This document shows positions 10,912 through 56,690 of a stretch of DNA of 64,000 bases, in pieces; the first letter of the stretch is position 1, and every line of letters starts with the position of its first letter. The position numbers were made by a program, and so were the translations under genes. The stretch spans positions 1,798,001-1,862,000 of the forward strand of contig NC_089433.1 of assembly GCF_026210795.1 (NCBI RefSeq), written 5' to 3'. The notes under the pieces were generated by a model. That model saw only the letters and a program-made list of their open reading frames with translations, was not told where the DNA came from and ran no database searches. Source of the DNA: Rhizophagus irregularis (Eukaryota).

Positions 10912-11054
10912 GGAGGATCATCGCAACTCTTTCCTGAATTTTTGAAAATACTAATAAAAATTTATTTTTGAAATTTTCGTTCGAAAATTTCTAAGTGCTC
11001 GTTCAAAATACTAATATTTCCACAGTTGCTTTCCTCTTTACTGAGCTTTATACT

Positions 11055-19332: not shown

Positions 19333-19695
19333 CACAGGTCGAAATTAGTTAAATAGGGTATCAATAGGTTATCAATAGGTTATCAATCGGCTATCAATAG
19401 GCTACCCTATTGGTAGCCTATTGAACTTGCGCCATAATCCGTCACCAATCAGGCAGGCTGATTGTTAGCCAATTAATAACCTATTGATAACCTATTAGTA
19501 TCCTATTGGTATTTTTATCAAATTGGTTATCAATAAGGTATTAATAGGTTATCAATAGGTTATCAATCAGCCTGCCCGATTGGTGACGGATTATGGCGCA
19601 AGTTCAATAGGCTACCAATAGGGTAGCCTATTGATAGCCGATTGATAACCTATTGATAACCTATTGATACCCTATTTAACTAATTTCAACCTGTG
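19333..19695. mobile_element. Fold-back MITE, CAC termini, 3-bp TSD (CACTA/CMC-like)
   Basis: AAT|CACAGGTCGAAATTAG...CTAATTTCAACCTGTG|AAT; ~130-bp near-perfect arms with TATCAATAGGT repeats; empty site visible in copy 1. Confidence 0.93.
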
Positions 19696-25368: not shown

Positions 25369-27938
25369 CATCAGGAAGTCACGGGAAAAATGTTTATTAC
25401 ATGTACATTTTTGTAGATCATGTATATTATAATATTCATTATTTTAAATTAACATGTAATATTTAACATTAATGAGCATCATCAATGAGATTTTTATCAT
25501 GATGTGCAGCATTAAATAATGATAATTCAATATTTATCAAATTTATAATTTTTTATATTAGTGCACTAGTCAAAATAGACCATGATCTACGATTAGACAT
25601 TGGTCAAATAGTGCACTAATTAAAACGTCACGCGTTACGCATATTAAAAGTTTAAAAAAGGATCATCATCTTTTTTTAAACTTTTCATTCTCTTTCATCC
25701 TTCCCCTATCATCCTTCCTTTCCCCCCTTCCCTTCCTTTATCTTCCTTTCCTTTCCCTTTGTCCCTCCCTCCCTTTCGTCCTTCCCTTCCCCCTTTTCTC
25801 ACGCCTCTTTTTCTTGGAAGTAATGTAAGTTTCATTTCGAAACTTACATATTTTTTTTTAATTTATTTTTTTTTTAATTTAAAAAACAACTTAACATTTC
25901 TTATTGTTATTTTTTTGTAGGACGCGCACTAGGAGGACGCCAGCTTGAATACTACGAAACCGGACTTTAGGTAGTGAGAAATGGGAAAGGGGAAGAGATT
26001 TTTGTTATTTTATTTTAAGAAACGAACTAACGTTTCTTTTTGTTATTCTTTTTTTGTAGGACGTGCACTAGGAAGACGCTGGCTTGAATACTACGAAACT
26101 GGACTTTAGGTAGTGATAAATGGGAAAGGGGGGAGATTTTTGTTGTTTTTAATTTAAGAAACGAACTAATGTTTCTTTCATTATTTTTTTTTTTATAGAA
26201 CAAGGACGCCGGCTTGAATACGAAACCAGACTTTAAGGTAAAAAACTGGAAAGGGGGGATTGGAGGAAGGGGACTTGAACTAAGATTCGTAAGAATCTTG
26301 GTTTTATTTATTTTTTTTTATTATTTTAGAATAGTTACTAATAACCGTTCTTTTCTTTTTAGATTTCGGATGGACTTCCGATTTTTGGAAAAGGAGAAAC
26401 CAAGATTCGTAAGTACGTACGAATCTTGGTTTTTTATTTTTATTTTTTATTATTACGAACGGTTACTAATAACCATTTTTTTTTGTTTAGGTTCGGATGG
26501 GCTTCCGAATTCCAAAGAATGGAAGACTAAAGATTCGTAACGGTAAGTACAAATTTTTTTTTATTTTTTATTTTATGGAACGGTTTACTAACCGTTCCTT
26601 TCTTTTTTTTTATAGGTTTGGTGAGCTTCTGACGAACGGAAACCAAGATTCGTAAGAATCTTGGTATTTTTTTTTTATTTTATAGAACGGTTTACTAACC
26701 GTTCCTTTCTTTCTTTTATAGGTTCGGTGGGCTTCTGACAAACGGGGAACCAAGATTCGTACGAATCTTGGTTTTTATTTATTTTTTTTATTATTATGGA
26801 ACGGTTTACTAACCATTCCTTTTTTTATTTTTATAAGTTCGGTGTCTCAGAAGAATGGAAAAACCTAAAGATTCGTAAGTACTAGTACGAATCTTTTGGG
26901 TTTTTTTTATTTTTTTTAATATTACGAACAGTTACTAACCGTTTTTTTCTTTTATTTTTTTTTTATAGGATTGGGTGGTCTTCCGAAGAACGGAAAATAA
27001 TAAACTGAGGTTCGTAAGTATTTTACTACAAACTTTAGGATTTTTTTAATATTACGAACGGTTTATTAACCGTTCTTTCTTTCTTTTTTTTAGAGGATCA
27101 GGTGGATTTCTAAAGATCGGAAAAAGGAGAACTAAGGTTCGTAAGTATTATATTACGAACCTTAGATTTATTTTTTTTTAATGCTATGAATGGTTCTAAC
27201 CATTCTTTTTGTTTTATTTTTTAGATTTCGGGTAGGCCTCCAATCTTCGGATAAAGTGGAACCAAGATTCATGAGTACGAATCTTGGTTTGTTTATTATT
27301 TTTTTTTTTAAATATTATGGAACGGTTACTATTTACTAACCGTTCTTTTTCTTTTTTTTAGGTCTCAGGTGAATTTTCGAAGAATGAAACAAGAAGATCA
27401 AGATTTGTAAGTATATACAAATCTTAACGGAACGGATTAGTAAGTTTCGAAGTTTTACTTCAAAACTTTTTTTAAAATTTTTTTTTAAATTAATTTTTTT
27501 ATTAATTCTTTTTTTATCTTTTTATTGTTAGGTTGTACTTCTTGAACAAGTTTCGAAGAATAACTGAACTTCAAACCTTTTTTTGTAGGTCACGGAGTAT
27601 TTAGTTAATTAATATAAAGATTGTAAGTTTCGTTGCGAAGCCTACTGTCTTTTTTTCATTTTCTTTAACAGTTGTTACTTTTAATAATAGAAAAATTTAG
27701 CTAATATTATTGTTATAGTGTATTTAATAAAATAAATTCAATAATATTATAAATTTAATATGATGTTTATTATCTTTAAATAATGTACATCGTTAATAGA
27801 CATTAAAATTAGGTGATGCACATCGAATATTATGACATCGGTAGTACATTGCAGGGTCCGATGTTCAGCGTTTCTTTATAATGTACATCAAATGACCGAT
27901 GTACATTTGATAAACATTTTTCCCGTGACTTCCTGATG
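25369..27938. mobile_element. Non-autonomous TIR element A (TA TSD) carrying a micro-exon/intron array
   Basis: 29-bp perfect TIR CATCAGGAAGTCACGGGAAAAATGTTTAT; TA duplicated relative to empty site TACCTCTAAGAC in other copies; no transposase ORF. Confidence 0.93.
25690..27735 (+). ncRNA. Putative multi-exon non-coding transcription unit (about 14 micro-exons)
   Basis: CT-rich leader, then repeated donor (GTAAG/GTAG) - branch (CTAAC/CTAAT) - poly-T - YAG units; AATAAA near 27726. Confidence 0.55.
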
Positions 27939-30900
27939 TAAGACTTTACTTAAACGGTGTCCTTCTGAAGGATGTTTTTCTTATGTTCCGTTATCAAGTT
28001 TGATCTGTTATTCTACGAAACCTCATACTTATATACATGCGGATACTCGCTCAGTTTCACTTTCTGCATTGTTAGGCTATGCCAAATCTCTTTTATTATT
28101 TCATCTATTTGCTTCGGTTCGGCTACCTCCTGCGCTTACCCAAGCGTCCAGGATTTCTGATATCCAACTTCCTTCTTCGGTATCTATACTTTATATTGAT
28201 GGTTCCTTCCTTCCTCCTTCTAGTCATCTGGTATTTTCGATGGCCTATGCATAGACTGCTATAGATCCTGATGGGTTTATTTTGGAATCCCATTATAATA
28301 TCATTTCTTCCATTTTTCCATCTCCTTTACGTTCAGAAGTATTTGCTTTATTGCATGGATTGGACTCCCTCCCTCGGAATTCAAAAATTACTGTCGCCAC
28401 TGATTGTGCCCAATTACTTTCTTTATGGTCTTTATATGTGAATGCTCCTTTTATTCCCAGAATGCTTAAAGAATCCAACCACCTTTTGTGGTCTTCTATA
28501 CGCACTATTATGTGGCAAAAGAATCTGGATGTTTCCTTGATTAAGGTTCATGCTCACGCTGACAACCCTTTGAATAATCATGTGGATGTATTAGCCAAAG
28601 CTGCTCATACCGACTCGCATCTTTCTTCTCATCCATCATTGAAATTGCTAGCTTCTTGCATTTTACAATTTAATTTCTTACCTGTGGATATGAATATCCG
28701 GAAATTTATTAGAGATATTTTTGATGCTAAATGTCTTTTAACTCTTGCTGTATTACCAAGATTTAATTCCTCTTCTTCGATTTCTGATATCGATTGGGCT
28801 TGCACCAAATTTTGTCTCAATAACAATAAGCAATTTGTCTCTCATCAGAATGGCCGTTCTGAGTTTTGTAGTTTCCGTATCAAACTAATATTAGATATGC
28901 TTCTGACGCTTACAACTCTTCAGAGACAAAAGCCTCATCTTTACAATCCGAGTTGGCTTTGTCCTCAATGTAACTTTTCTCCTGAGACTTTAAACCACTT
29001 GTGGACTTGTCCTTATATTTTACCAGAATTTAGTCCTTTAAAAACTTTTAAAACACTACTATTGGCTCTTCGGACTACTTATCTTGATAACTTTCTTTCC
29101 GCGTCATCTTTTATCCCTTTACCGGACACTTTTGCTGCTGAATTTATGGCTCTTAATTGTTGGGATTGTGACCCTCCTTCAATTTCCTACTTACTGCTCG
29201 CAAGAGGACTTATACCGATATCTCTTACAGAATTTCTTGGAATCTATTTCTCTTCACCTACCATATGGTCTATCTTAGATACACCTTTGCATGACTTTCA
29301 TTTTGACCTTTATGTTCAAATCTGGTTGTGCCGGTCTATTTTCTTTCATCATTGGGAATCAGCTCAAGGCATTACTAATAAAATGAAATCGTTAGCTCTT
29401 GGGCCTTCTTCTATTTCTCGCTCTTCCTCTAACATTCCTCCTGATTCTTTGACACCTTCCTTGGCGACAGTTTCCTCAGATTCCTGGGTTTCCTGGGTTT
29501 CCTCTTCTATAATCCGTGAGGGATCTTGGATTTCACATTTGGATTTTTGGCGCCGTTTAACAGTTCAGCCTCTACTTAGGATTTCTTCTTGGTAACAGAT
29601 TGGATTTTAGGATATGCTGGATAGTTGACTCACACTGGCCTTCGGGTAAAGATGGGGTATGCGTTTCTGTAATAGTTTAGTTTTTCTTTACTTAATTTTA
29701 TTTTGTTTAGATTTCTTTACTTGTATGAATCGTGAAGCTAGTTCTTTTTATTTTTTGTTTAATTTTCTATATTTTGTAATATTGTTCGATTTGATTATTG
29801 TACTTTTCGTTTAATAATTATAATAAAAGATAAAGTTAAAAGACTGTTTGCTCATAATCACCAAATAAGAGGATCATCGCAACTCTTTCCTGAATTTTTG
29901 AAAATACTAATAAAAATTTATTTTTGAAATTTTCGTTTGAAAATTTCTAAGTGCTCGTTCAAAATACTAATATTTCCACAGTTGCTTTCCTCTTTACTGA
30001 GCTTTATACTATGACTACACCTCCAGCTCCTTCTGTTATTAACCCGAATATTCCGCCGCCACCGCGTCCTGTTGTTTCTACTCCCTCTGGAGACCGACCT
30101 TTATCTCCCACTAGTACCGCTGGCGCATCTAACAAACGTTCACGCGTTGTCTCTGATGACGCTATGAATGTTGATATAACTTCACCTTCTGCTTCGGCTT
30201 CCAACCTTATTTTTACCGCTCCCTCAGGCCTTCCTGTCAACAAAGTCCAAGTGATTACCTCTTTTCGTAATACTACTACTTCTGTTGAAACTATTGACGC
30301 TTCTATCCATGCTCCCTCTAACATTAATGGTAAAGGCAAAGCTGTTGCCTTCGATATGCCAGAGCGCTGACCCTCTCCCGATGGTAATGCGGCTGCTATC
30401 AAATCCGCACCTTCTCACTACCATGCTGCGGCCTATCTACGCGACGCGCCTGACACGTTCAAAGCTAAATTTACCACCAATCGCTCCATATGTGACGAAG
30501 TGGATTGTTCACTCTCCCGATATCCTTCTTATGGCGCCCGTGCACATTGCGATAGATCAGGCGATAACAAAAAGATCCTTGTCTTCTTCAATGATCAGCA
30601 TGATTTTACCGATTGTGTCAGCTCCCCGCATGCAGATCTTCTCAATTTAGCCTTTGTTCATTATTCCCCTGCAGATGCCAAACTCAATGATGAAGCAAAG
30701 TCTTTGTTTGTTACTGACATCCCACTCTTCCTGAATGAGATGCAAGTCCGCCAGGCATTTTCCTGATATGGAACTGTGATTAAATGCAAACTCACCCCTA
30801 AGAAACATTACTACAATGGTCATATCCAGTTTTCTTCTGTGGATGCAATTGCCCAATTTGATGATATTTGGGCGATCATTTGCCTTGGTAATTCCTTACG

Positions 30901-33649
30901 TGTCTGCCCGGCATCTTTTTCAAAATGCCAACATGACAGCCGTAGAGAATATGTTGCTATTCTTGCCAGCATTCCAAAAAATATTAAAGAAGCCGACCTT
31001 TTTGAAATTGCTAATCAAGTTAATGCTAAAGCCCTTAACGTCCCACTATCTATTAACTCTTACAAGCCTAAACCCTACGCATACTTGAATTTTTCTTCAT
31101 TTGACACTCTAGAAGCTGTAAAAGAAATGACCGTAGCTTTCCATGGCAAAGGGTTGATATGGCACCCTCCCAATGAAGCACATACTTTATGCCATGTTTG
31201 TGGGCGTTCTGGTTGTTCACCTTCTGTTTGTAGTCCTTGTCCTACACGAAAAGTGGATGATCACCTTAACAAATTATATTCACGCTTCAATGCTGGTTCT
31301 TGACGTGGTCATCAGAATTCACGCCAACCGCGTGATAAATCCAATTCCCGTTCACGATCGCGATCTAATTCCAGATTTCGCAATCCATCTTCTTCATTCC
31401 GATCTAATAACAGTAATAACCGTACTAATAATACTCGTCCTGATACTTCTCGTAGTAACAACTGAACCAACAGCAATAATAATAATAACATTCCCAATAA
31501 CAATGGTTATTCTTCCGGTTCTATTCAACCTCCACCTGAGCCTCGTCCTAATAATTCTACTACACATATCTCTTCTTCTGACAATTCTGCTTATACACTT
31601 CTTCAACATATCATTGATGAGTTAAAGGCGCAGATTAAAGAGATTGCTACTACCCTCAAATCTCTTGATGAAACGGTCTCCTGGATGCAGGATACTATCA
31701 CGAATCATGATTATAGAATTTCTGAGCTCGAATCAATGATGAATTATGATAGCGGTAATCCTGGTGACTCAGATTTGTACCCACCTCATGATGATCAAGA
31801 AACTCATTCCTATAATAATGGATGGGATGATGCCCCAACCCAGGACACGAATTCAGGATTCAACCTTCTTCCTCATACTGCACCCTCTCTTATTGATACT
31901 TCTCCTGATGCTTCTTTTTCTACTTTGGATCCTAACTCTGTCTTATCACGACGACATGTCCCCTTACTTAACTCTCGACCTACTATTATTGCCCCTGATG
32001 CTAATGCTTTCCGTCTGCAATTGGAAATTTCTAATGTTACTAATACCCAAAAGAATCTTTCTGCCCAACTTGGTTCGATTATGAATAAGTTGGACTCCTT
32101 CTCCCCCTCAAAACCTTCCCCTTCTAATGATTGAACACCAACTTGATTTGGGTGATTTACAGGGACTTCACCCCCCTGACAGTGTGTTACCTGATAGTCT
32201 TAATAGCAAGATCCCTTCCTTTTCTCCTTCCCCTCTTATTAATTTTGGACAAATCAATGTTAATGGTTTATGTTCCCCTGTTAGACAATTGCACTTGTTA
32301 AATTATTTCTTGCATTCCTCATTTGGTGTTTTATCTCTAAATGATACTCGTCTTACTTCATCTAGTGCTAAATTTATTTATCAAAATGATCATTCCCAGT
32401 ATAATTTTAAGTCCTATTGGGCTCCTTTCCCTTCTAATTCATGACATCATGATGGTGTTGGTCTTTTACTTCGCCATCCTTTACATAAACATGTTCAGAA
32501 AATTGATCCCTGGAAAGGTCGTCTTTTAAAATTAGATCTTTTTTTCCATCAAACTAAAATTTCTATTATTTCAGTTTATATTCCTCCTTATCATTCTATT
32601 CATTATAAAGAACGTGATGCTATTTTTGCTCAACTTAATTTATGGCTTGATAAAGCCCGCTCTAATAACTATCACGTAGTCATCCTTGGTGATTTTAATG
32701 CAGATGAATTTTCACATTCACATCTTCCTCAACATCATTTAAAAATTTTACGATTACTTTCTTCTCGATATTTTACGGATCATTAATCCCATATTTCCTC
32801 AACTTCAGGTCCTAGTCCTACCTTTTATCATCAGAATGGTTCTTCACGACTTGATTATATTTGGTCATCCCCTGGATTTCCTGCTCCTGGTCTTTTCTCT
32901 CAAGTTGAAACTTGTCCTAAGCTGAACGATAATCAATTTACTGATCACTGTGTACTTATAACGGCCTTTGATTTTAGTTCTTGTTTCGCTACTTTAGCTA
33001 AAGCTAGATTAAAGCAGAAAAGCGAACAACGCACCATTTTTCTCTACAAGAATTTAAAAGAAGATATTTGAAAAACATTTTCCAATGAAGTAAACTCACG
33101 TCTTGAGTTGTATTTGACCACACACCATCCCTCTATATCTTTACTTTCAGCTCTTCCTTTGGACAAACTTTGGCACGCTCTTAAACGTTCTATTCTTGGT
33201 GGTGCCATTGACTCTCTACCATTTCAACATGTATCCAATACTCACCATCATAAATATTCTCCTGAGCTTACTAAGCTTATTGCTATCAACAAATTTTTGG
33301 ATAGATTATTGTTTAAATTGACCACATCTAGGCCTACACTGGTCAAAATCAATTCTATCGGGTACATATCGGGTACCTATATATCGGTGGCTAATCGGAT
33401 AAGTATCGGGTATTTTTACATATCGGGTACCCGATAGCTAAGCTATTAGTCACTGATATTGTATATCGGGCATTGATCTATCTTACACATATCAGGTACC
33501 CGATATGTAAATTTTAATACGTAAGATTTTTATTTTGTACAACGTACTGTATTATATATAATCCGTTTCAACTAAAATTTTTTATTTAAATTCATTTTTT
33601 AGATAATTTTTATAAATAATTTTCTAAGAAATTTTAAAAGTCCATTTGA

Positions 33650-36600
33650 ATAATATTTAATAGGGATTTTATTTAAGAAACTTTTAGATAGATTTTTTTG
33701 AGAAATTTTTTAAGAGTCCGTTTGGAAAAATTATTTTTTTAACTAAGAGGATCATTTAGAGCATTTTTGATAGAGAATTTTCTAAAGATTTGTTTGGAGA
33801 GATTATTTTTGAGAATTTTTTAACTAAAGGGACCGTTTGGAACATTTTTTGATAGAGAATTTTCTAAGAATTCGTTTGGGAAATGGTTTTTTGAGAATTT
33901 TTTAACTAAAAGGATCATTTGGGCATTTTTTGATTGAGAATTTTCTAAGAGTTCGTTTAGGGAAATTATTTTTTGAATTTTTTAATTAAGGGGATCGTTT
34001 AGGGCATTTTTTGATTGAGAATTTTCTAAGAGTTCGTTTAAAGAGATTATTTTTGAGAATTTTTTAACCAAAGGGACCGTTGGAACATTTTTTGATAGAG
34101 AATTTTTTTGATAGAGAATTTTCTAAGAGTTTGTTTGGAAAAATTATTTTTTGAGAATTTTTTAACTGAAGGTATCATTTGATAGAGAAATTTCTAGGAG
34201 TTCGTTTAGGAAAATTATTTTTTGTATTTTTTAATTAAGGGGATCGCTTAGGACATTTTTGATAGAGAATTTTCTAATGATTTGTTTGGAGAGATTGTTT
34301 TTGAGAATTTTTTAATTAAAGGGAACGTTTGGAACATTTTTGATAGAGAATTTTCTAAGAATTTGTTTGGGAAATGGTTTTTCAAAAATTTTTTAACTAA
34401 AAGGATCATTTAGGGCATTTTTTGATTGAGAATTTTCTAAGAGTTCGTTCAGGGAAATTATTTTTTGAATTTTTTAATTAAGGGGATTGTTTAGGGCATT
34501 TTTTGATTGAGAATTTTCTAAGAGTTCGTTTAGGGAAATTATTTTTTGAATTTTTTAATTAAGGGGATCGTTTAGGGCATTTTTTGATTGAGAATTTTCT
34601 AAGAGTTCGTTTAGGGAAATTATTTTTTGAATTTTTTAATTAAGGGGATCGTTTAGGGCATTTTTTAATAGAGAATTTTCTAAGAGTTCGTTTAGGGAAA
34701 TTATTTTTTGTATTTTTTAATTAAGGGGATCGTTTAGGGCATTTTTTGATAGAGAATTTTCTAATGATTCGTTTGGAGAGATTATTTTTGAGAATTTTTT
34801 AACCAAAGGAACCGTTGGAACATTTTTTGATAGAGAATTTTCTAAGAATTTGTTTGGGAAATGGTTTTTTGAGAATTTTTTAACTAAAAGGATCATTTAG
34901 GGCATTTTTGATTGAGAATTTTCTAAGAGTTCGTTTAGGGAAATTATTTTTTGTATTTTTTAATTAAGGGGATCGCTTAGGGCATTTTTGATAGAGAATT
35001 TTCTAATGATTCGTTTGGAGAGATTGTTTTTGAGAATTTTTTAACTAAAGGGAACGTTTGGAACATTTTTGATAGAGAATTTTCTAAGAATTTGTTTGGG
35101 AAATGGTTTTTCGAGAATTTTTTAACCTAAAGGATCATTTAGGGCATTTTTGATTGAGAATTTTCTAAGAGTTCGTTTAGGGAAATTATTTTTTGTATTT
35201 TTTAATTAAGGGGATCGCTTAGGGCATTTTTGATAGAGAATTTTCTAATGATTCGTTTGGAGAGATTGTTTTTGAGAATTTTTTAACTAAAGGGAACGTT
35301 TGGAACATTTTTGATAGAGAATTTTCTAAGAATTTGTTTGGGAAATGGTTTTTCGAGAATTTTTTAACCTAAAGGATCATTTAGGGCATTTTTGATTGAG
35401 AATTTTCTAAGAGTTCGTTTAGGGAAATTATTTTTTGTATTTTTTAATTAAGGGGATCGCTTAGGGCATTTTTGATAGAGAATTTTCTAATGATTCGTTT
35501 GGAGAGATTGTTTTTGAGAATTTTTTAACTAAAGGGAACATTTGGAACATTTTTGATAGAGAATTTTCTAAGAATTTGTTTGGGAAATGGTTTTTTGAGA
35601 ATTTTTTAACTAAAAGGATCATTTAGGGCATTTTTGATAGAGAATTTTCTAAGAGTTCGTTTGGGGAAATTATTTTTTGTATTTTTTAATTAAGGGGATC
35701 GCTTAGGGCATTTTTGATAGAGAATTTTCTAATGATTCGTTTGGAGAGATTGTTTTTGAGAATTTTTTAACTAAAGGGAACGTTTGGAACATTTTTGATA
35801 GAGAGTTTTCTAAGAATTTGTTTGGGAAATGGTTTTTTGAGAATTTTTTAACTAAAAGGATCATTTAGGGCATTTTTGATTGAGAATTTTCTAAGAGTTC
35901 GTTTAGGGAAATTATTTTTTGTATTTTTTAATTAAGGGGATCGCTTAGGGCATTTTTGATAGAGAATTTTCTAATGATTCGTTTGGAGAGATTGTTTTTG
36001 AGAATTTTTTAACTAAAGGGAACGTTTGGAACATTTTTGATAGAGAATTTTCTAAGAATTTGTTTGGGAAATGGTTTTTCGAGAATTTTTTAACTAAAAG
36101 GATCATTTAGGGCATTTTTGATAGAGAATTTTCTAAGAGTTCGTTTGGGGAAATTATTTTTTGAATTTTTTAATTAAGGGGATCGTTTAGGGCATTTTTT
36201 GATAGAGAATTTTCTAAGGATTCGTTTGAAGAGATTATTTTTGAGAATTTTTTTAACTAAAGGGAACGTTTGGAACATTTTTGATAGAGAATTTTCTAAG
36301 AGTTCGTTTGGGAAATGGTTTTTCGAGAATTTTTTAATTAAAAGAATCATTTAGGGCATTTTTTGATAGAGAATTTTCTAAGAGTGTGTTTAGGGAAATT
36401 ATTTTTTGAATTTTTTAATTAAGGGGATCGTTTAGGGCATTTTTTGATAAAGAATTTTCTAATGATTCGTTTGGAGAGATTATTTTTGAGAATTTTTTAA
36501 GCCAAAGGGATCGTTTGGAACGTTTTTGATAGAGAATTTTCTAAGAGTTCATTTGGAAATGGTTTTTCAAGAATTTTTTAACTAAAAGGATCGTTTAGGG

Positions 36601-37230
36601 CATTTTTTGATAGAGAATTTTCTAAGAGTTCGTTTGGAAAAATTATTTTTTGAGAATTTTTTAACTAAAGGGATCATTTGGGACATTTTTGATAGAGAAA
36701 ATTCTAGGAGTTTATTTGGGGAAAGTATTTTTTGAGAATTTTTTAACTGAAGGTATCGTTTGATAGAGAAATTTCCAAGAGTTCGTATAGGGAAATTATT
36801 TTTTGAATTTTTTAATTAAGGGGATCGTTTAGGGTATTTTTTGATAGAGAATTTTCTAAGAGTTTGGGGAAATTATTTTTTGAGAATTTTTTAACTGAAG
36901 TATCGTTTGATAGAGAAATTTCTAAGAGTTCGTTTAGGGAAATTATTTTTTAAATTTTTTAATTAAGGAGATCGTTTAGGGCAATTTTTGATAGAGAATT
37001 TTCTAAGAGTTTGTTTGGAAAAATTATTTTTTAAATTTTTTAATTAAGAGGATCGCTTAGGGCATTTTTGATAGAGAATTTTCTAAAGATTCGTTTGGAG
37101 AGATTATTTTTGAGAATTTTTTAACTATTTGGAACATTTTTTGATAGAGAATTTTCTAAGAGTTTGTTTGAAAAATTATTTTTTGAGAATTTTTTAACTG
37201 AAGGTATCATTTGATAGAGAAATTTCTAAG
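33650..37230. repeat. Satellite array, ~81-bp monomer (two ~40-bp halves) with 242-bp higher-order repeat
   Basis: GAGTTCG anchor at 34441, 34522, ~34603 (81 bp) and at 34927, 35169, 35411, 35653, 35895, 36137 (242 bp). Confidence 0.92.
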
Positions 37231-37695
37231 ATAATATAGTTATTGAGTATGATATATACTTCCGATGGTGTATAGTAATAAAATTCTAAAAACCGTTCAT
37301 TGTATATTATAATCCAAGTACTTACAATTCATATCTTTTTCGTTTATATAATTATCATTCGGTAAATCATCTTTGATGTTTTGTCCCTATAATAATATTG
37401 AGAAAAGTTAATTTATCATTAATTTCGTCATAATAAGAGAAGTATAGTGTAAAAAAACTATACTGTATAGATAAAAGGGGTACTGTATAAAATAAAAACT
37501 ATACTGTATAAAATAAAAAACTATACTGTATAGATAAAAAATTATACTGTATGGATAAATATAGATTTTTATCAACTATACTATACAACATCGGAGGATT
37601 CGGAGGTATATTTCATACTCAATATCGTTTAACCAGAAATGGATGCTATCGGGTATTCAGTATATCGGTATATTTGATTGGCCGATCTACACATC

Positions 37696-39160
37696 TTTTT
37701 TGTAGATTCCGGGTAAGTGTCTCGAAAAATTTTGTTTTTTATGTAAGAACGTTCATTAACGTTCTTTTACTGCTTTTTTTTTTGTAGATTTCGGCCGGAA
37801 CTTGGAAATGGAGACCGGTGAGTATTTTTAAAAGGAGGAAGCAAGTTTTTTTTTTGGTTTTTCATATGTAAGAACGTTTATTAACGTTCTTTTACTTTTT
37901 CCTTTTTGTAGATTTCGGCCTGCGAACTTGAAATTAGGATCAGTAAGAGGGAAAGCAGGAGATTTTTTTATGTAAGAACGTTTATTAATGTTCTTTACTT
38001 CTTTTTTTTGTAGATTTTAGCCTGCAATTCGGATATGGGGACCGGTGGGTATTTGAGAAGGAGGAGGTTTTTTTTTTTTATGTAAGAACGTTTATTAACG
38101 TTCTTTTATTTTTTTTGTAGATTTTGGCCTGGAACTCAGAAATAGAGACCGGTGGTGAGTATTTTTAAAGGGAAGAAGCGGATTTTTAAATTTTTCTTTA
38201 TGTAAGAACGTATATTAACGTTCTTTTATTTTTATTTTTTTTGTAGATTTCGGCCCGGAACTCAGAAATGGAGACCGGTGAGTATTTTTAAAAAGGGAAG
38301 TGGGGGTTTTTTATTTTATTTATGTAAGAACGTTTATTAACGTTCTTTTATTTCTATTTTTTTTGTAGATTTCGGCCTGGAACTCAGAAATGGAGACCGG
38401 TGAGTATTTTTAAAAAGGGAAGTGGGGGGTTTTTTATTTTATTTATGTAAGAACGTTTATTAACGTTCTTTTATTTCTATTTTTTTGTAGATTTCGGCCC
38501 AGAACTCAGAAATGGAGACCGGTGAGTATTTGGAAAAGTAGGGGTTTTTTTTGTTTTCTTTATGCAAGAACGTTTATTAACGTTCCTTTACTTCTTTTAT
38601 TGTAGATTTTAGCCCGGAACTTGAAAATGGAGACCGGTGAGTATTTCTAAATGTTTTTTTATATTTATTCATGTAAGAACGTTTATTAACGTTCTTTTAC
38701 TACCTTTTTTTTGTAGATTTTAGCCCAGAACTCGGAAATGGTGACCAGTGGTGAGTATTTTTAAAGGGAGGAAGCGGATTTTTTTAATTTTTCTTTGTGT
38801 AAGAACGTTTATTAACGTTCCTTTACTTCTTTTTTTTTGTAGATTTTAGCCCAGAACTTGGAAATGGAGACCGGTGAGTATTTCTAAAAGAGGAAGTTAT
38901 TTTTTTATATTTCTTCATGTAAGGACGTTAATAATGTTCCCTTTCTTTTTTTTATCATTTTTATTAGGGACATGGATTCTTGGATAATAATACAAACTGT
39001 AAGTTGAGTGGATGAAGGAGATTCTAAATAATTGTGATATTATGAAAAATCAGTGATTTAACTTGTTGACTGGTATATGTATGATAGGCTACCGATAGGT
39101 ACCCGATATATGACTAATTGGTATATTTAAGTAGGGTTTTGTATTATTTAAAGTAATAAA
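37696..39160 (+). ncRNA. Putative micro-exon/intron array (about 11 units of ~120 bp)
   Basis: Unit: TTTTGTAG|~31-nt exon ATTTCGGCCCGGAACTCAGAAATGGAGACCG|GTGAGT...AAGAACGTTTATTAACGTTCTT...poly-T; AATAAA at ~39155. Confidence 0.6.
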
Positions 39161-42100
39161 GAGTTTAACTTGCAGTGTAATTCTAGTATAAATAGTATAA
39201 ATGCATTTTATTAATTATAATAATCCGGATTGATATGTTGGGGTTAAAATCCATGGCCCAATCAGAATTTGTTGTTGTAATCAGGCGATTGATCACATGA
39301 TTTCAGTATTTATATTTCGCACTTTGTTTATTTTTTTTTTCCTTTCGTAAAAACCTTTCTCTTAAACTTTTTATTTAAAACAAACTCTTTACTTAGTTAT
39401 TATGAAATAATATTATTATTATATTTTTTTATTTATTTTTATATTAGAAATAAACATAAAGGTATATTTTTATTATGCTCGTTTTTTCTTTTATATATAC
39501 ATTTTCTATTGACGTTCTAATACTTTTTTTCTTTTCTCTCACTAATGTTTTCTACCACTTATTAACATTTTCTATTAATATTAAATACTACTAACATGTT
39601 TTTATTAACATTCTCGTATTAATATTTTCTATTTTACTAACTTTTCTTTCTTCCTACTAACATTTTTACTAATATTTTCTATATTTACCACTAACGTTTT
39701 TATTAATATTTCTATTTTTATTTCTCTTATTAATTAATATACTTACTAATATTTTCACTAATATTTCTTTTAAATGTTAAACAGATAATTTTATTATCAT
39801 TGTTACTTTTAGTAGAACTTTACATATTACATAGTATAATTATTTATTTTTAATGTTCAACTTTATTTGATTTTACGTATGTAGTAGATAGAGTAAGATT
39901 TGTATTATTGTTTAAATTTTAATAAAGTTGAATTTCATTTTATCTGAATTAAAATAAAAAAAAGAGATATATGTCTATTGGTTTTATATGAAATTTATAG
40001 CTACTAACTGATGTATTACAAATATTTTACTACCCGATATATGTGTGTTAAATATATGATATTTATAATATATATCACTGATATTTGACTACCCGATATG
40101 TATAAGATATATACATGATGTTTACAAGATATGTCACCGATATTTGACTACCCGATATGTATAAGATATATACATGATGTTTACAAGATATGTCACCGAT
40201 ATTTAACTACCCGATATGTGTAAGATGTATACATGATGTTTACAGTATATGTCACCGATTTTCTACATTTCTACTACACATATCGGGTACCTGATATGTG
40301 TGGTATTGTTAAATATCATACACATATATCACATATATTATACACATATCAGGTACCTGATATGTACCCGATAGTATTGATTTTGACCAGTGCTAGTCGT
40401 CCTGCTCAAATTTCACAACTGATTAATTATCCATCTACCCAATTAATCCTTCTTAAATCTCTTTTAACAGATTATACTATACCTTCTTATAGTACAACAC
40501 CACTTCCTAATTTTGTCAAATTCTTGCGTTCACAAAAAGCTTTGGTCTCAGCTTATCTTTTCACGCAATTTCATCAACATTGTGTAGATTCCATTGAATA
40601 TTATACTGCTCTTAGAGATGAACATTTCTCTACATCTCCGGGCTCCTTTATTTCTTCAGCCCTTTCAGTGGAACATCGTTCTATCGTTCTTGATAGAGTC
40701 TTGGTTGTTATTGACTCTAAACCCACTTTACTTACTGATCCTTCAGATATCAAACAAGCTGCTATTAAACACTTCCAATCGGTTGTTACTCCTCCTTTGG
40801 TCCAGTATTCTTCTATAGATTCATTTCCTCCACGATAGCAAAGAGCATATACCCCTCTTTCCGATATTGATTCGTCATTATATAACTCGGTCATGTCTCC
40901 TATTTTGGAAGATGAATAGAAGAATATTCTCAATTCTATGCCTAATAACAAAGCCTCTGGTCCTTCCAAAATTTCTTATGAGATGCTCAAACATTTAACT
41001 GGCGAAGCTTTCAATTTATCCCTTATTTTAGCTAATGCCTGCCTCATTCATGGAGATATTCCTGCTGATTGGTGTGAAGCGCTTGTTTATCCCATTCCAA
41101 AGCCTCATGAATTTGACGCACAATTAAAGAATACGCGACCTATCACTTTATTGGAAACTGTACGAAAATGTGTGGTTAAGATCATTACAACTCGTCTTTC
41201 AAAAATCCTAGCTGACAACCAAGTGCTCCAAGGTGGTAATTTTGCTGGATTGCCAGGCGGTTCCACTGACATTCCTATTAAGATGCTTGATGCTATTCTT
41301 CATCAACGCCGCTTTGACAAAACTGATGACCAAGATTTATGGATTGTTTCTCAAAACATTTCTAAGGCCTTTGACTCAATTGATTTAAACATGCTTAGAC
41401 TGGCTTTAATTCGTCTGCATATTCCGTCTTTATTGATCAAATTTATTATTAACCATTTTACAAGACGTAATAATAAAATTATTACCCATTATGGTGATAC
41501 TTCTGGATATAGAGTTAGAATTGGTATTGACCAAGATGAAATCATTTCTCCATTATTATGGGTTATTTACTTGGATCCTTTGCTTACTACACTTAATCGA
41601 GAAGCTTGTGATCCCTTTATTTTGAAATCTTCTGCATTATTGTATTATTCTCCAATTGAATATGAACAACACAATCTTCCTGTTTCGCATATTACATTTA
41701 TGGATGATTCTACTTTAATTGCTTCATCTAAACGAGGAATTGAAGATCGCCTTTCCATTACTGCTGAATTTTATACTTTAAATAATACTCAAGCCAATTC
41801 AGCAAAATATATTCTTCTTTCTTCTGAACAATTTTCTCAAACTATTATGTTTGATCTTTCTCCATCCCCTCTAATTACATCTCATACCCTTACTTTAAAG
41901 GCATTAGCCTTATCTACATCTTTTCGATTTTTAGGTGTTTGGTTTAATCTTTTGGCTTCTTCTCATTTTGTTCACAACCAAACTGTTTCCATGGTCAAAA
42001 ATATGGCTGTTTTACTTAGTCTTAAAAAACTTTTGGCACAACATGTGGCCTATCTTTATAATATTGTTTTACTTTCGAGGCTAGAATTTCGCCTACAATC

Positions 42101-44940
42101 CACATTATTTGCTGAATCCACCATTAATCGCATGGTTTCTCCAATGCTTTCTCTTATTCGTCAGAAGGCTGGTTTGGCCTCAGTCACTCCTCTCTCTGCG
42201 CTTTTCACACTGTTGCCGTTCTCTATCCAACAAGTGTTTGGTCGATTTCTATTATTTCATGTGACTTCATGGCAGAAAATTTTTTCTCACCCTTCATATA
42301 AACTTTTTGCCAATTATATGATTACCTATCTCCAAGGATTTTTGGATTGTGATGCCTGTCCTTCTACTATTGATTTGGAACCATGGTCCCATACCTTTTC
42401 CCTATGAACACATTCTTTGTTTAATTCTTTATTGTTCTCTTCTCGATTGAATATCACATGGTCTTTATTATTTCGACCTCTGAGGAAAGATTTACGACCG
42501 GTGATTCCACTCTGGTCTATTTTACCAAAAGATTTATTTACTTCCATGAAAAATGTTCGGAAAAATTTCTGCACTTGTTTTCTTGCTCAACTGATTACAC
42601 CATGTGGCTCTCGACTTCTCTCATGGAAAGATTTACGCTTTCTTAAACGAGTATCGAACAAAGGATCTGTGCCTGCTTGGTTTAATTGTTTATTCAATCT
42701 TATTGTTATTCCTAATTTACTTTCTTTTTTTATTTTACAACAATTTAGAATTCCTAGTTCTCATACTGTAGCTTCTATTTCCTTTATAGATATTAGTCGA
42801 AATTATTGGTTTAACCCTCAATGGGCTATTTCTTTCAATCGTAATACTAATTCTTTTCTTGTTGGCCGTGTGATTACTACCTATCCTGCTCCACGTAATG
42901 AAGCTCTCATCTCACATTGGATTGCGATTTCAGTTGATGATTTGCTTTCTGAATTTACAGCATGTCAAGGATGTGCCTCTGCTATTTCGCGATCCTCTAC
43001 CTCTAAGACTCTACTTAAACGATGTCCTTCTGAAGGATGTTTTTCTTATGTTCCGTTATCAAGTTTGATCCGTTGTCCTACGAAACCTCGTACTTATATA
43101 CATGCGGATACTCGTTCGGTCTCACTCTCTGCCTCATTAGGCTATGCCAAATCTCTTTTATTATTTCATCTTTTTGCTCCGGGTCGATTGCCTTCTATGA
43201 ATAACCATGTGTCTAGGATCTCGGATATCCAACTTCCTTCTTCGGTGTCTACACTTTATATTGATGGCTCCTTCCTTCCTTCTTCTAGTCATCTGATATC
43301 TTCGATGGCTTATGCATGGACTGCTATAGATCCCGATGAATTTATTTTGGAATCCCATTATAATATCATTTCTTTTATCTTTTCTTCTGCTTTACGTTCA
43401 GAAGTGTTTGCTTTATTGCATGGATTGAACTCCCTCCCTTGGAATTCTAAGATTACTGTCACCACTGATTGTGCTCAATTACTTTCTTTATGGTCTTTAT
43501 ATGTGGATGCTCCTTTTATTCCCAGAATGCTTAAAGAATCCAACCACCTTTTGTGGTCCTCCATACGCACTATTATGTTGCAAAAGAATCTGGATGTTAC
43601 CTTGATCAAGATTCCTGCTCATGCTGACGACCCTTTGAATAATCATATGGATGCATTAGCTAAAGCCGCTCATACTGACTCACATCTTTCTTCTTGTCTA
43701 CCATCGGAATTGATGGCTCCTTGCATTTTACAATTTAATTTTTTACCTGTGGATATGAATATCCAGAAATTTATTAGAGATATTTTTGACGCTAAAAGTC
43801 TTTTAACTCTTGCTGTATTACCAAGATTTAATTCCTATTCTTCAACTTCTGATATTGATTGGGCTTGCACCAAATTTTGTCTTAATAACAATAAGCAATT
43901 TGCCTCTCATCGGAATGGACGTTCCGAGTTTTGTGGTTTCCGTATCAAATTACTTTTAGATATGCTTCCAACGCTTACAACTCTTCAGAGACGAAAGCCT
44001 CATCTTTATAATTCCAGTTGGCTTTGTCCTCAATGTAACTCTTTTCCTGAGACTTTAGACCACTTGTGGACTTGTCCTTATATCTTACCAGAATTTAGCC
44101 CTTTAAATACTTTTAAAACACTTCTATTGGCTCTCTGGACTAATTATCTTGACAAATTCCTTTCCGCGTCATCTTTAATACCTTTACTGGACTCTTTTGC
44201 TGCTGAATTTATGGCTCTTGATTGTTGGAATTGTGACCCTCCTTCATTTTCTTGCCTGAGACTCACACGAGGACTTATACCGATATTCCTTACAGAATTT
44301 CTTGGAAATTATTTTTCTTCACTTACCATATGGTCTATCTTAGATACACCTTTGCACGACTTTCATTTTGACCTTTATGTCCAAATCTGGTTGTGCTGTT
44401 CCATTTTCTTTCATCATTGGGAATTAGCTCAAGGCATTATAAAAAAAATGAAATTGTCAGCTCTTGGGCCTTCATCTATTCTTTGTCCTTCCTCTAACAT
44501 TCCTCTTGACTCTTCGACACCTTCCTTGGCGACAGCTTCCTTGGATTCCTGGGTTTCTTGGGTTTCCTCTTCTATAATCCGTGGGGGATCTTGGATTTCA
44601 CATTTGGATTTTTAGCGCCGCTTAACAGTTCAGCCTCTACTTAGGATTTCTTTTTGGTAACGGATTAGATCTTAGGACATGCTGGATAGTTGACTCACAC
44701 TGGCCTTCGGGTAAAGATGGGGTATGCGTTTCTGTAATAGTTTAGTTTTTCTTTACTTAATTTTATTTAGTTTAGATTTCTTTACTTGTATAAATCGTGA
44801 AGCTAGTTCTTTTTATTTTTATGTTTATTTTCTATATTTGATATTTGTAATATTGTTCGATTTGTTTATTGTACTTTTCGTTTAAAAATTAATAATAAAA
44901 GATAAAGTCATAAGACTGTTTGCTCATAATCACCAAATAA

Positions 44941-45822
44941 TAGCGTGAAGGCACAGGGATTAGTGTAGTTGGACTGCATCATGGTGAATTAGTGTGTACA
45001 GTTAGGCCGCACATTTCAACTAAGGGTCATGGTGTCCTTCTAACGTTCTCTGAAGAGCCACTTGGCATGTGCCTGGGGCCCCGTCTTTCGAGGTCACTAC
45101 TATACCTTGGAGGGGACTTCCTGTCCGGGTGGTCACTCTACGATACCACTTGGGGTCAGTAATGGCTAGATGGTCGTCCTAGATGGTAAAGCTGAGGGTG
45201 CAATGTCTTAGTGGTAGTTTGACCTTCTGTTAGGTCTTAGACCAACCACAGTGTTCGTGCACAGAACAGATAGCTTGGTGATTGGGTTCGATTCCCTTCT
45301 CTGATGGGCCCTGGTTGGTGATTCCTGGTGGTTGATACCCACCATAAGGGATGATCCTGGGTAACACCTACAAGCTTACTGTCCAGGTGGTCGCTACAAA
45401 GTATACCACTTGGGGATTACAACTGTACTATCGGTGGTGGGTAATCGCGGGCTGTAGTGGCCTTTGAGTGAGACCTGGTACCTAATATGGTAGTATGGAA
45501 GGGGTCCAGATGTTTGAAGGTTATTTGACGAAAGTCCTCCGTGACAGTAGTAGTGGTGAGGGGTTTATAATAGTAGCCATTACAGTATCATGCAGTGGAT
45601 TAAAGGACGAGTAGGGTGGTGTTTAGCAGATTCGAAGGCCTTTGGGTCCCTGGAATATGTCCTTGCGTTTCGGTTGTGATGTTGAATTGTCCCTGTTAAA
45701 AAGGTGGCAGGAATGGTTACATCATGGCTTAGTGAGGATGATGCAATGAACGACCTACCTCCATAGCCTTCAATAGAGGGTGCGAAAAGTAGTGGCCACT
45801 AAACTTACAAAACACTTGTAAA
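44941..45822 (+). mobile_element. 882-bp GC-rich non-coding SINE-like element inserted at the LINE target
   Basis: Flanked by the 15-mer on both sides; no ORF, no visible similarity to the LINE; A-box-like TAGTGTAGTTGG 44961-44972, B-box GGTTCGATTCC 45285-45295; no TTTT on + strand. Confidence 0.75.
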
Positions 45823-45837
45823 ATAATCACCAAATAA

Positions 45838-47669
45838 GATTCTCTCATGGAAAGATTTACGTTTCCTTAAACGAGTATCGAACAAAGGACCTGTGCCTGC
45901 TTGGTTTAATTATTTATTTAATCTTATTGTTATTCCTAATTCTCCTTATTTATTTGTTTTATCACAATTTAAAATTCCTATTTCTCATACTGTAGTTTCT
46001 ATTTCTTTTATAGACATTAGTCGAAATTATTGGTTTAACCCTCAATGGGCTATTTCTTTTAATCGTAATACTAACTCCTTCCTTGTTGGCCGTGTGATTA
46101 CTACCTATTCTGCTCCACGTAATGAAGCTCTTATTTCACATTGATGATTTGCTTTCTGATTTTACTGCATGCCAAGGTTGTGCCTCTGCTATTCCGCGAT
46201 CCTCTACCTCTAAGACTTTGATTAAATGATGTCCTTCTGAAGGATGCTTTTCTTATATTCCGTTATCTAGTTTGATCCGTTATCCTACGAAACCTCATAC
46301 TTATATACATGTGGATACTTGCTCGGTTTCACTTTCTGCCTCGTTAGGCTTTGCCAAATCTCTTTTATTATTTCATCTTTTTGCTCCAGTTCGATTACCT
46401 CCTATGAATAATTAAGTGCCTAGGATTTCTGATATCTGACTTCCTTCTTCAGTGTCTACGCTCTATATTGATGGTTCCTTCCTTCCTCCTTCTAGTCATC
46501 CGGTATCTTCGATGGCTTATGCATAGACTGCTATAGACCCTGATGGATTTATTTTGGAATCTCATTATAATAGTATTTCTTCCATTTTTCCTTCTGCTTT
46601 ACGTTCAGAAGCTTTTGCTTTATTACATGGATTGGACTCCCTCCCTTGGAATTCAAAGATTACTGTCGCCACTGATTGTGCCCAACTACTTTCTTTATGG
46701 TCTTTGTATGTGGATGTTCCTTTTATTCCCAGATTGCTTAAAGAATTCAACCACCTTTTGTGGTCCTCCATACGAACTATTATGTCACAAAAGAATCTGG
46801 ATGTTTCCTTGATTAAAGTTCCTGCTCACGCTAACGATCCTTTGAATAATCATGTGGATGCATTAGCCAAAGCCGCTCATATTGACTCACATCTCTCTTC
46901 TCATCCGTTTTCGGAATTGTTGGCTTCTTGCATTTTACATTTTAATTCTTTACCTGTGGATATGAATATCCAGAAATTTATTAGAGATATTTTTGACGTG
47001 AAAAGTCTTTTAACTTTTGCTATATTACCAAGATTTAATTCCTATTCTTCAACTTCTGGTATCGATTGGGCATGCACCAAATTTTGCCTTAATAACAATA
47101 AGCAATTTGTCTCCCATCGGAATGGCCGTTCCGAGTTTTGTAGCTTCCGTATCAAATTATTATTAGATATGCTTCCAACGCTTACAACTCTCCAGAAACG
47201 AAAGCCTCATCTTTATAATCCGAGTTGGCTTTGTCCTCAATGTAACTCTTCTTCTGAGACTTTAGACCACTTGTGGACTTGTCCTTATATCTTACCAGAA
47301 TTTAGCCCTCTAAATACTTTTAAAGCACTACTATTAGCTCTCCGGACTACTTGTCTTGATAAATTTCTTTCTGAGCCATCTCTACTACTTTTACCAGATT
47401 CCTTCGCTGCTGATTTTAAAGCTATTGATTATTGGGATTGTGATCCTTCTTCAATTTCCTGTCTGCGACTTACACGAGGACTTATACCAATATCTCTTAC
47501 AAAATTTCTTGGAAATTATTTTTCAACATTTACCATATGGTCTATTTTAGATACTGACGAATTCAATTTTTTCATAATGCCTTGAGCTGATTCCCAATGA
47601 TGAAAGAAAATGGAACAGCACAACCAGATTTGTACATAAAGGCCAAAATGAAAGTCATGTAAAGGTGTA
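45838..47669 (+). mobile_element. LINE copy 4, 5'-truncated, last ~115 bp inverted, 3' end missing
   Basis: Begins directly after the 15-mer at a position equivalent to ~16607 of copy 1; forward to 47554; 47554-47669 is the reverse complement of the next LINE segment. Confidence 0.9.
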
Positions 47670-55231: not shown

Positions 55232-56690
55232 ATGGAATCTGCAACTTCAAGACCACCAAGGAAAGGTAAGCTTCTAACAAAGACTCCTTGCCCCATTCAC
55301 CGACTTGGAGCTACAACTGAAGAGATTAGACATGTAGACTACGAACTTGTGGATGGAAATTTCGTAAGACACTACATACACGATGATATTAACCCAATAG
55401 GAGTTTCATGTTTTACACCTTTGGGCGAACCCCCTCATAAAAATCCTATTAGTGATCAAATTGACTGCTACTTTCTTCCCAAGGATACTCTCCTACCTCA
55501 AGGATTAGCTATTATTTTCACCCACAAGACTAGACTTCGATTTCCTACGTGTTGTCAAAAAGGATGGCACTTTTGTATAGTACCAACGATGCAAATGACA
55601 TTAGCAGAGTACGGAGATGCAATAAAAAATCTTAATTGGAATCTATGTGAAATTAAGGCCAATGCAGAGTTAAAGGAATTAGTCCATAAAGATGATGACT
55701 TGAGGGGCGTGCGAGATTTCCTAATAACTGAGATATACTTACTTATCGAACTCTGGTACAAACAGACGACAGACGCCATGGAACGTCTCTATGCTAACGA
55801 TATTCATACATGGATCGCATTAAAAAAGCCAACCCTTAAAGAACTTATCCGTGATAAACCACGTGCATACATTATATTCCATGCCATTTCTTACTTGAAT
55901 GCAACATCGGTAACCCAAAAAACATACAAATATGATATTTTGGGTGTACTTGAGAGACGCATTCGGATGGAAAGTCAAAGAGTTCGGTGATGAACCAAAT
56001 ATAGGAAGTTGTAAGTAATTTTTATAATAACGTGTTTTTATTTGTAGAAACCTATCAAATAACCTAATTTTATAGTAGCAGAAACGTTTGATACTATGCA
56101 TCTGGATGATAAAGGAAAAGCTCCAGGTATTTATTTGAGCGTCTTACAGTTCAATCTAGACTAAAAGAGTTGTAGTGCGACGATACGCTCTACTGAAAGT
56201 GTCGTTGTTCCGCAACTAATGGGACATTTTTTGGTATAATTAATATACGATTCTGATACAGTCATACATTTAATGTTTAGATGAAAGCGCAGATAAATAT
56301 CTTCGGGACGCATGTGATGCTGAAGTTATTAGAGTAAATGATGAGTTATGGATATTAAAAGATTATGAATTAAAAGACGGGAAAAAGTATAAAAAACAAG
56401 TTAATATTGGATGTAGGGTAACTAATATTAATGATGGCAAATTAACCATTGCTCTTATTGATCATGAAGAAAAACAAAATATAATTTCTTCGTTAAATAA
56501 GCTTGAAGAGTGGTTGCTTGATGAGTTTAAGTTAGATAAAGAATACAGACCTAAAGATTATCATAATTGCACCGCTAACATTTTAATTAAACGTGAAGGG
56601 GGGAAATTCCTAGGGAACATTAGAGAATGTAAGAAATTAAAAAATAACTATATGCCTCAAACTTATATCGAAATTCCACCTAAATATTAA
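55232..56690 (+). CDS. Tse2-like ADP-ribosyltransferase-domain protein; probable downstream exons after an apparent frameshift near 55955
   Basis: 252-aa ORF with IHR, GVSCF, YFLPKDTLLPQGLAI, HFCIVPTMQMTLAEY; further GT-AG bounded segments and a stop-free ~135-codon terminal exon 56281-56690. Confidence 0.65.

Follow-up and report, generated by a model that had tools for sequence, protein, structure and literature searches.

Many near-identical spliceosomal introns that are structured and tied to mobile DNA are known as introners and, in fungi, as introner-like elements with a stable predicted structure; introners are single introns that are dispersed in protein-coding genes and bear transposon hallmarks of their own. 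Short hairpin-bearing introns that are released by splicing are known as mirtrons, in which a hairpin with a stem of some 20 bp or more takes up the whole intron, and small nucleolar RNA (snoRNA) host genes such as GAS5 and UHG give rise to spliced, polyadenylated, non-coding RNAs whose introns are conserved above their exons. Furthermore, transposons of the Foldback and Galileo types have long inverted ends that consist of tandem repeats, and MuDR elements have promoters in their terminal repeats; we know of no case among these where the repeat unit is a complete splicing unit. In this study, we analysed 64 kb of AT-rich eukaryotic DNA from Rhizophagus irregularis (contig NC_089433.1, positions 1,798,001 to 1,862,000; GC content 0.21-0.42 across 2-kb bins), to which we refer as the window and by whose own numbering all positions are given. 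It holds a tandem array of microexons and short introns (core array 37788-38873, + strand) within a non-autonomous DNA transposon, which we call TE2. The array is transcribed and its predicted splice sites are used, giving a non-coding RNA. Whereas introners are single and dispersed, the introns of this array are tandem, alternate with microexons in a non-coding unit and lie within a larger element, and their conserved block, unlike that of snoRNA host genes and mirtrons, is a 22-nt hairpin with a 9-bp stem at the branch site. We consider it probable that the array is kept for the act of splicing or for this hairpin, and not for its exon sequence.

Eleven TTGTAG|ATT acceptors were found in 37706-38873, the first at 37706 and the last at 38843, and ten of them open exons of 30-34 nt (in order 30, 31, 31, 34, 31, 31, 31, 31, 34 and 31 nt, so that seven of the ten have 31 nt). 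The donor that follows is GTGAGT in eight of the ten cases, and GTAAGA and GTGGGT in one case each. Taken together, the ten microexons (37788-37817, 37912-37942, 38014-38044, 38121-38154, 38247-38277, 38369-38399, 38491-38521, 38606-38636, 38717-38750 and 38843-38873, all on the + strand) and the nine introns of 71-94 nt between them form the core array, with coordinates taken from the sequence and splicing from RNA-seq. The acceptor-like TAG of 37706 opens only 7 nt before a GTAAGT, and we therefore regard 37706-37787 (+), which continues with an intron-like stretch and a hairpin at 37745-37766, as a degenerate leading unit. Each array intron runs from the donor through an A/G-rich tract, a T-run, TATGT, the palindrome AAGAACGTT-TATT-AACGTTCTT and a pyrimidine tract to the TAG. 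Ten branch-site hairpins of the form AAGAACGTT-NNNN-AACGTTCTT, 22 nt each with a stem of 9 bp, are predicted on the + strand within 37745-38822 (starts at 37745, 37870, 37974, 38084, 38204, 38326, 38449, 38566, 38675 and 38801). The palindrome AAGAACGTTNNNNAACGTTCTT occurs ten times in the window at no more than one mismatch, every time within the array and with an exact copy at 38326-38347, against 0.05 expected occurrences and with none of 100 shuffles reaching ten. Tandem Repeats Finder describes the array with a period of 122, 7.2 copies and 82% matches, and only the units 38278-38399 and 38400-38521 are near-identical. A preliminary description, which was made from the sequence alone, had recognized about 11 units of YAG|exon|GTGAGT with a purine tract, a palindrome around TATT and a poly-T tract, and had stated that the 31-nt exon does not preserve the reading frame; both statements hold, with 11 acceptors and ten exons of 30-34 nt.

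The microexons are followed by a last array-type intron of 94 nt (38874-38967, +), which stems from a twelfth, diverged unit with the decayed hairpin AAGGACGTTAATAATGTTCC, by a unique 31-nt exon (38968-38998, +), by a non-repeat intron of 89 nt without a hairpin (38999-39087, +, GTAAGT..TAG, fold z = +0.08) and by a terminal exon (39088-39340, +), which is covered over its whole length by a piece of a contig; the transcript ends at about 39320-39340. About 230 nt upstream of the first full exon, a 21-nt repeat with the palindromic core CTATACTGTATAG is present five times (37451-37559, +) at an RNA depth of only 1-4, and it may control the array transcript from upstream.

Transcription was followed mainly in the polyA RNA-seq run X24, which carries the same organism label and is unstranded; among public runs, the sequence was also found in DNA runs of one organism and, at small shares, in root, rhizosphere, soil and 'fungus' metatranscriptomes. 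Together with the AT-richness and the fungal splice signals, these habitats would suggest an arbuscular mycorrhizal fungus. A total of 1,762 X24 reads mapped to 37300-40450, 665 at an identity of at least 99%, 711 at 95-99% and 386 at 90-95%. Among the best 15 of the 31 joints in this region, 12 are skips of the GT..AG type whose ends coincide with predicted exon borders, each supported by 47-270 reads, and these include ten of the 11 predicted neighbouring junctions and eight of the nine core-array introns. The joints between neighbours are 37816>37911 (100 reads), 37942>38014 (74), 38043>38120 (72), 38276>38368 (47), 38398>38490 (270), 38520>38605 (253), 38635>38716 (159), 38749>38842 (127), 38872>38967 (112), which joins the last microexon to the unique exon, and 38998>39088 (123), which removes the non-repeat intron; 38043>38368 (65) and 38153>38368 (83) are exon-skipping forms. 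The joint 38154>38247 is absent among these 15 of 31. In addition, a 388-nt contig of the oligo-dT metatranscriptome X17 contains eight array joints in series. The use of its GT..AG borders in RNA agrees with a U2-type intron-exon array, for which a branch at an adenosine of TAYTAAC is predicted from the motif and its conservation. It had been proposed in the preliminary description that RNA-seq be searched for the junction GGAGACCG|ATTT; such reads exist, for example those of the joints 38398>38490 and 38520>38605. The accompanying prediction, that splicing gives a repeat RNA together with many near-identical hairpin introns, is borne out by the GT..AG joints and the eight-joint contig.

The RNA depth is near zero over 37406-37723 and rises from about 0.6 in 37618-37723 to about 79 in 37724-37829, which places the 5' end of the RNA in or near the degenerate leading unit, between 37724 and 37788. 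At the other end, 13 molecules terminate at 39320 and the depth falls to 0-5 past 39420. As silent controls, the carrier element has a depth of 0-0.5 at 39844-40450 and the flanks, which belong to a long interspersed nuclear element (LINE), have a depth of about 0. A mapping to 24800-28500 had no GT..AG joint among the 15 of 68 listed, which came mostly from the DNA runs X1 and X6. DNA contamination therefore does not explain the splice signal. The spliced product of this copy, 599 nt, has stops in all three frames, and the fold of the 346-nt spliced array RNA is no better than that of shuffles (z = +0.47). Some joints in the RNA reads go backwards, namely 38398>38368 (60 reads) and 38520>38368 (85 reads), and the X17 contig contains an extra exon pair; these stem either from differences in array length between copies or strains, or from back-splicing. 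A circular RNA was considered and not adopted, as copies with extra units explain the backward joints equally well and the linear contig has the same order. A further 126 reads match from 38977 onward and have unrelated sequence upstream, and 48 reads similarly have a loose end at 37326, all with G>A at 37361, from which we conclude that other expressed loci share these stretches.

The signals for splicing are the conserved part of the unit. When the nine full units are compared in pairs, they differ on average by 3.8% in the donor, by 3.8% in the hairpin block and by 0% in the AG, as compared to 22.8% for the exon and 34.9% for the purine/T tract, which has many indels as well, so that donor and hairpin are about six-fold better conserved than the exon. 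With these values for exon and tract, the array was called 'young homogeneous' too generously in the preliminary description. Furthermore, the array belongs to a wide family. The exact palindrome pattern matched 96 metagenome loci, of which 34 have 2-8 copies, mostly 100-130 nt apart, and at those contig loci where poly-T and YAG come after the palindrome, a microexon of 16-58 nt and diverse sequence and then a GT donor follow; in some array families the donor is a weak but conserved one, such as GTAATT. The real sequence has 202 hairpin-plus-acceptor sites and shuffled sequence has six. A covariance model built from 14 window units gave 302 matches at E <= 0.01 in the window and 62 of the 96 loci (193,626 bases). 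The other 34 loci mostly have single, GC-richer matches, and 33 of them have no poly-T/YAG beside the match, which was present in L028, a marine-sediment contig.

Covariation was assessed with the 150 best matches to the model, 107 of which are distinct. The stem is paired in 96.6% of cells and has changed on both sides in six of its nine pairs, and 23 cells with changes on both sides compare with 2.0 +/- 1.3 in shuffles, none of 500 of which reach this number; controls in which the stem was slid pair at 27-68%. Loop and first bases of the 3' arm read TATTAAC in 45 and TACTAAC in 39 cases, together 84 of the 107 distinct matches, and we take these two sequences to be the fungal branch-site consensus. 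In minimum-energy folds the 9-bp hairpin appears in ten of 12 introns, and in several of them the purine tract is predicted to pair with the pyrimidine tract around the hairpin. This arrangement is similar to that of structured yeast introns, in which stems unite donor and branch site, but in the array the pairing is predicted only and the z-scores of the intron folds are modest (-3.9 to +0.1, below -2.5 in four of 12).

TE2 (33337-40393, +) is 7,057 bp long and is inserted in a LINE copy, which is broken at 33333/33336, at LINE position 14384, and continues at 40394. Empty sites are provided by the LINE copies 10897-18931 and 19696-25368, which run through the insertion point uninterrupted. 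The termini CACTGGTCAAAATCAAT..CTATCGGGTAC (33337-33365, +, and 40365-40393, -) are inverted repeats that match at 28 of 29 positions and start with CACTGG, and the target duplication is CTA (or TA). Exact copies of the 9-mer TACCCGATA number 14 in the window, where 0.29 are expected, and every one lies in TE2. Six copies in both orientations form a left subterminal cluster (33356-33505, no strand assigned) and six a right one (40031-40373, no strand assigned), which includes a 59-nt repeat present four times at 40022-40259; the remaining copies are single inverted ones on either side of the array. Half of TE2, in its left part, is occupied by an 81-nt satellite (33685-37231, +; about 43 copies) that has higher-order periods at 242 and 484 nt, a GC skew of +0.57 (G over C) and no splice-like signals. 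TE2 contains no transposase frame, as the sole open frame of at least 150 aa, 40233-40838, enters the LINE. Terminal inverted repeats, target duplication, empty sites and the lack of a transposase gene make TE2 a non-autonomous terminal-inverted-repeat DNA transposon, possibly of the CACTA type, for which we take CACTG ends, a 3-bp duplication and subterminal 9-mers to be characteristic. The preliminary description had missed both the place of the array inside a transposon and the wide family to which it belongs.

The homology of the contig loci to TE2 is limited to the array, and arrays of this type are found beside genes for different transposases. In a domain scan of 30 of the 69 open frames of at least 110 aa, from 26 array-bearing loci, Dimer_Tnp_hAT (L070 and L025) and MULE (L038 and L039) were found beside the array above the curated cut-off, and DUF659 (L021, L069 and L030) was found below the cut-off at an E of 6.6e-6 or better. 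A Tet_JBP match in L046 is weak and below the cut-off, and NUDIX matches in L013 and L026 are possibly chance bacterial contigs. On the hAT contig, which is the sole one to show both sides of the gene, the arrays are inverted repeats of 94% identity over 802 nt that point inward, and the same inward inverted arrangement, shorter at about 0.13-0.14 kb, surrounds the MULE gene on its contig. Since landing in a satellite would give direct and not inverted repeats, we consider these arrays to be part of the elements. Their placement is similar to that of the repeat-built ends of Foldback and Galileo and of the end promoters of MuDR, from which transcription runs inward; Foldback-like inverted arrays at both ends are seen on two metagenome contigs, whereas TE2 has a single array. 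We also considered that the array serves as the 5' leader of a transposase mRNA, but this is unsupported, as the L021 array seemingly has its own AATAAA ahead of the ATG. By eye, the hAT transposase gene of L021 (1576-2619) has an apparent ordinary intron at about 1838-1902 with neither branch-site hairpin nor TACTAAC, and from this single example we conclude that the hairpin is not a general feature of introns in these genomes.

Within the window, three elements bear this array design. A second, non-autonomous insert of 2.57 kb (25369-27938) with perfect 29-bp inverted ends and a TA duplication lies in a LINE, and its empty site is seen on a DNA contig (joint 25368>27942, depth 974). It holds four array families of the same hairpin-intron and microexon design, with the hairpins GGAACGGTT-TACT-AACCGTTCC, GAACGGTT-TATT-AACCGTTC and GAATGGT-TCTA-ACCATTC, and its units have an extra hairpin with the donor in the loop (ACCAAGATTC-GTAA-GAATCTTGGT), of which compensatory variants are present. 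A CT-rich tract (25699-25793) precedes the first donor. The third unit of this design (about 50440-48300, - strand) is more diverged, consists of a CT-rich tract and then about nine exons, has AACGAAACG..CTAAC..CGTTTC hairpins ahead of poly-T and YAG in its introns and lies between possible imperfect 31-bp inverted ends at 47675 and 51144.

The main rival to selection on splicing is a role of the palindromes at the DNA level, where the spaced palindromes would be binding sites or structure-forming subterminal repeats for transposition, and splicing would clean up read-through RNA or be incidental. Although we consider this unlikely, it has several observations in its favour: on two contigs, the long inverted ends of hAT and MULE elements are made of arrays, as those of Foldback and Galileo elements are of tandem repeats, the palindrome is the best conserved block of the unit, and the spectrum of stem mismatches is without an RNA-specific signal. 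However, the same hairpin type occurs in elements with differing termini, target duplications and transposases, which speaks against a transposase-specific site, and its arms change by compensation (GAACGTT, GAACGGTT and GAATGGTT, each with the matching partner), which a base-reading protein would not tolerate. In addition, the loop is restricted to TAYT, and AAC, poly-T and YAG come after it in a single orientation, a constraint that is sensible only for splicing, and the donor GT and the acceptor AG are conserved as well as the palindrome.

Neutral amplification, small RNAs and translation are weaker rivals. DNA transposons commonly capture gene fragments, and an exon-intron piece of a host gene might have been captured in this way and amplified by unequal exchange, with splice sites that serve no function and have not yet decayed. 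The near identity of the two central units and the decay of the outer ones would agree with such an origin, as would the backward joints and the extra exon pair of the X17 contig, which suggest ongoing changes in copy number; we nevertheless regard it as improbable, because exon and purine tract have diverged by 23-35% and donor, hairpin and AG by only 0-4%, and because the architecture is kept across families with exons of differing length (16-58 nt) and sequence and in three elements of the window. That the introns themselves are the product, as mirtron-like small RNAs or stable decoy lariats, is a thought invited by the location of the conserved block in introns and not exons and by the release of about ten near-identical introns per transcript; it is very improbable given that a 9-bp stem with a 4-nt loop falls far short of a Dicer substrate, and Rfam has no match at gathering score, with one chance-level match on the array (E = 0.78). 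Lastly, three 31-nt exons would make one 31-residue period of a repeat peptide, and the consensus exon, when repeated, is open in all three frames with an ATG in every exon. We give translation hardly any credence, since the spliced product of this copy is stopped in every frame with longest open stretches of a few tens of residues, exon lengths in the family do not favour multiples of three (the three remainders occur 34, 31 and 16 times) and the exon sequence is the less conserved part.

In the explanation that we prefer, namely maintenance for the act of splicing or for the branch-site hairpin, the branch site would consist of the loop and the first bases of the 3' arm (TAYT plus AAC) and the hairpin would form in the pre-mRNA. 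The purine tract would pair with the poly-pyrimidine tract and pull the ends of the short intron together, so that neighbouring sites are joined. The array may then be a portable 'splicing cassette' of DNA transposons in which the signals and not the exon are maintained, and each transcript would undergo about ten efficient splicing events. A plausible pay-off would be that well-spliced transposon RNA is treated as host mRNA and not as aberrant RNA that feeds RNA silencing; the RNA of the non-autonomous TE2 copy is probably a by-product. Introns protect transgenes in plants, and in Cryptococcus stalled splicing is reportedly linked to transposon silencing. A more far-reaching and rather doubtful proposal would be that the cassette is common to DNA transposons of several superfamilies in this fungal lineage, is placed in their ends and has multiple splicing as its sole job, marking the RNA as host-like for escape from splicing-sensitive silencing; it would then be a counter-defence built of introns.

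A number of observations weigh against the explanation that we prefer. In nearly all reads, several positions carry another base than the window does (for example C>T at 37923, in 143 of 151 reads); from such fixed differences, much of the array RNA is assigned to a variant strain or a paralogue, so that these reads do not prove that the very locus of the window is expressed. With an unstranded library, the call of the strand rests on GT..AG. For the arrays of the second insert (25861-27400), RNA is mostly of 90-95% identity and hence attributed to paralogues, and GT..AG occurs in none of the 15 of 68 joints listed. A consensus-like donor 12-60 nt downstream is present in only 81 of the 202 hairpin-acceptor sites, as judged by a strict regular expression. 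TE2 has only one array, which is directed outward, in contrast to the inverted pairs of the contigs; the L021 array appears to end in an AATAAA of its own, with a separate block of repeats and the ATG of the transposase after it. Concerning the hairpin, the alignment on which the covariation rests had been fitted to the model, and the units of a tandem array are related by descent. The stem has more A.C/C.A mismatches (20) than G.T/T.G ones (10), so that its pairing could be kept at the DNA level and nothing marks the RNA level. Moreover, with part of the branch site inside a hairpin, one would expect U2 binding to be hindered and not helped. Finally, the selective benefit is hypothetical.

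Several other known types of locus were considered and rejected. Regarding introners, all ten palindrome matches of the window lie in one array, the contig copies are tandem and not dispersed, and the alignment of the units shows an internal palindrome only, with no terminal repeats or target duplication for each intron. A snoRNA host gene does not fit, as Rfam gave no match at gathering score in the whole window and a permissive scan of 37400-39500 gave only a chance-level SNORA19 (22.9 bits against a cut-off of 80 bits), and neither does a mirtron, given a 9-bp stem and 4-nt loop against the stem of about 20 bp of precursor microRNA-like hairpins. A spliced-leader RNA array, in which a capped 5' exon with a donor alone is joined in trans, is excluded in that an acceptor precedes each exon and splicing links the exons in cis, and a cluster of mutually exclusive exons in that consecutive array exons are joined to one another in reads and in the X17 contig. 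No open frame runs through the array, as would be needed for an SP7-like effector gene of arbuscular mycorrhizal fungi; such effectors have a signal peptide and in-frame hydrophilic repeats with a conserved island (PMC11333574).

Spliced RNAs from transposons, transposon ends that are built of repeats and transposons that generate introns are each known separately. A repeat unit that is itself a complete, working splicing unit did not come up in our searches of the literature; the one described here is conserved in its signals and not in its exon and is common to elements with different transposases. Two reports deal with transposons by which splice sites are brought along or created (PMC9860276; PMC12130899), and their main texts make no mention of Rhizophagus, Glomero-, Mucoro- or tandem; in a study on the transposons of a model arbuscular mycorrhizal fungus (PMC11075540), introns, splicing or tandem arrays are not mentioned. 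Full-text searches, whose coverage stops short of subscription journals and supplements, found no description of such arrays. If splicing itself is selected, the arrays would offer a natural system for how the splicing history marks an RNA as self or as a silencing target, and for how a branch site that lies within a hairpin is used. In annotations, arrays of this kind will appear as odd multi-exon genes or satellites, and with three in a 64-kb window they appear to be abundant.

The window as a whole is a nest of mobile elements in which LINE repeats follow each other head to tail. The reference copy is 10897-18931; ORF1, the first of its two open reading frames, has an RRM domain and ORF2 has endonuclease, reverse transcriptase and RNase H domains. 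Two of the LINE copies are interrupted, one by TE2 and one by the 25369-27938 insert. The copies in 10897-33333 and 40394-47554 abut 3' end to 5' end (18917-19332 matches 10897-11315), and such a head-to-tail tandem arrangement is unusual for LINEs. A 252-aa open frame at 55232-55990 has a weak match to the Tse2 ADP-ribosyltransferase family that lies below the curated cut-off (24.0 against 26.6 bits). Just upstream of a LINE ORF1 start at 19693, the 11-nt repeat AATAGGTTATC and its complement form inverted blocks at 19352-19676.

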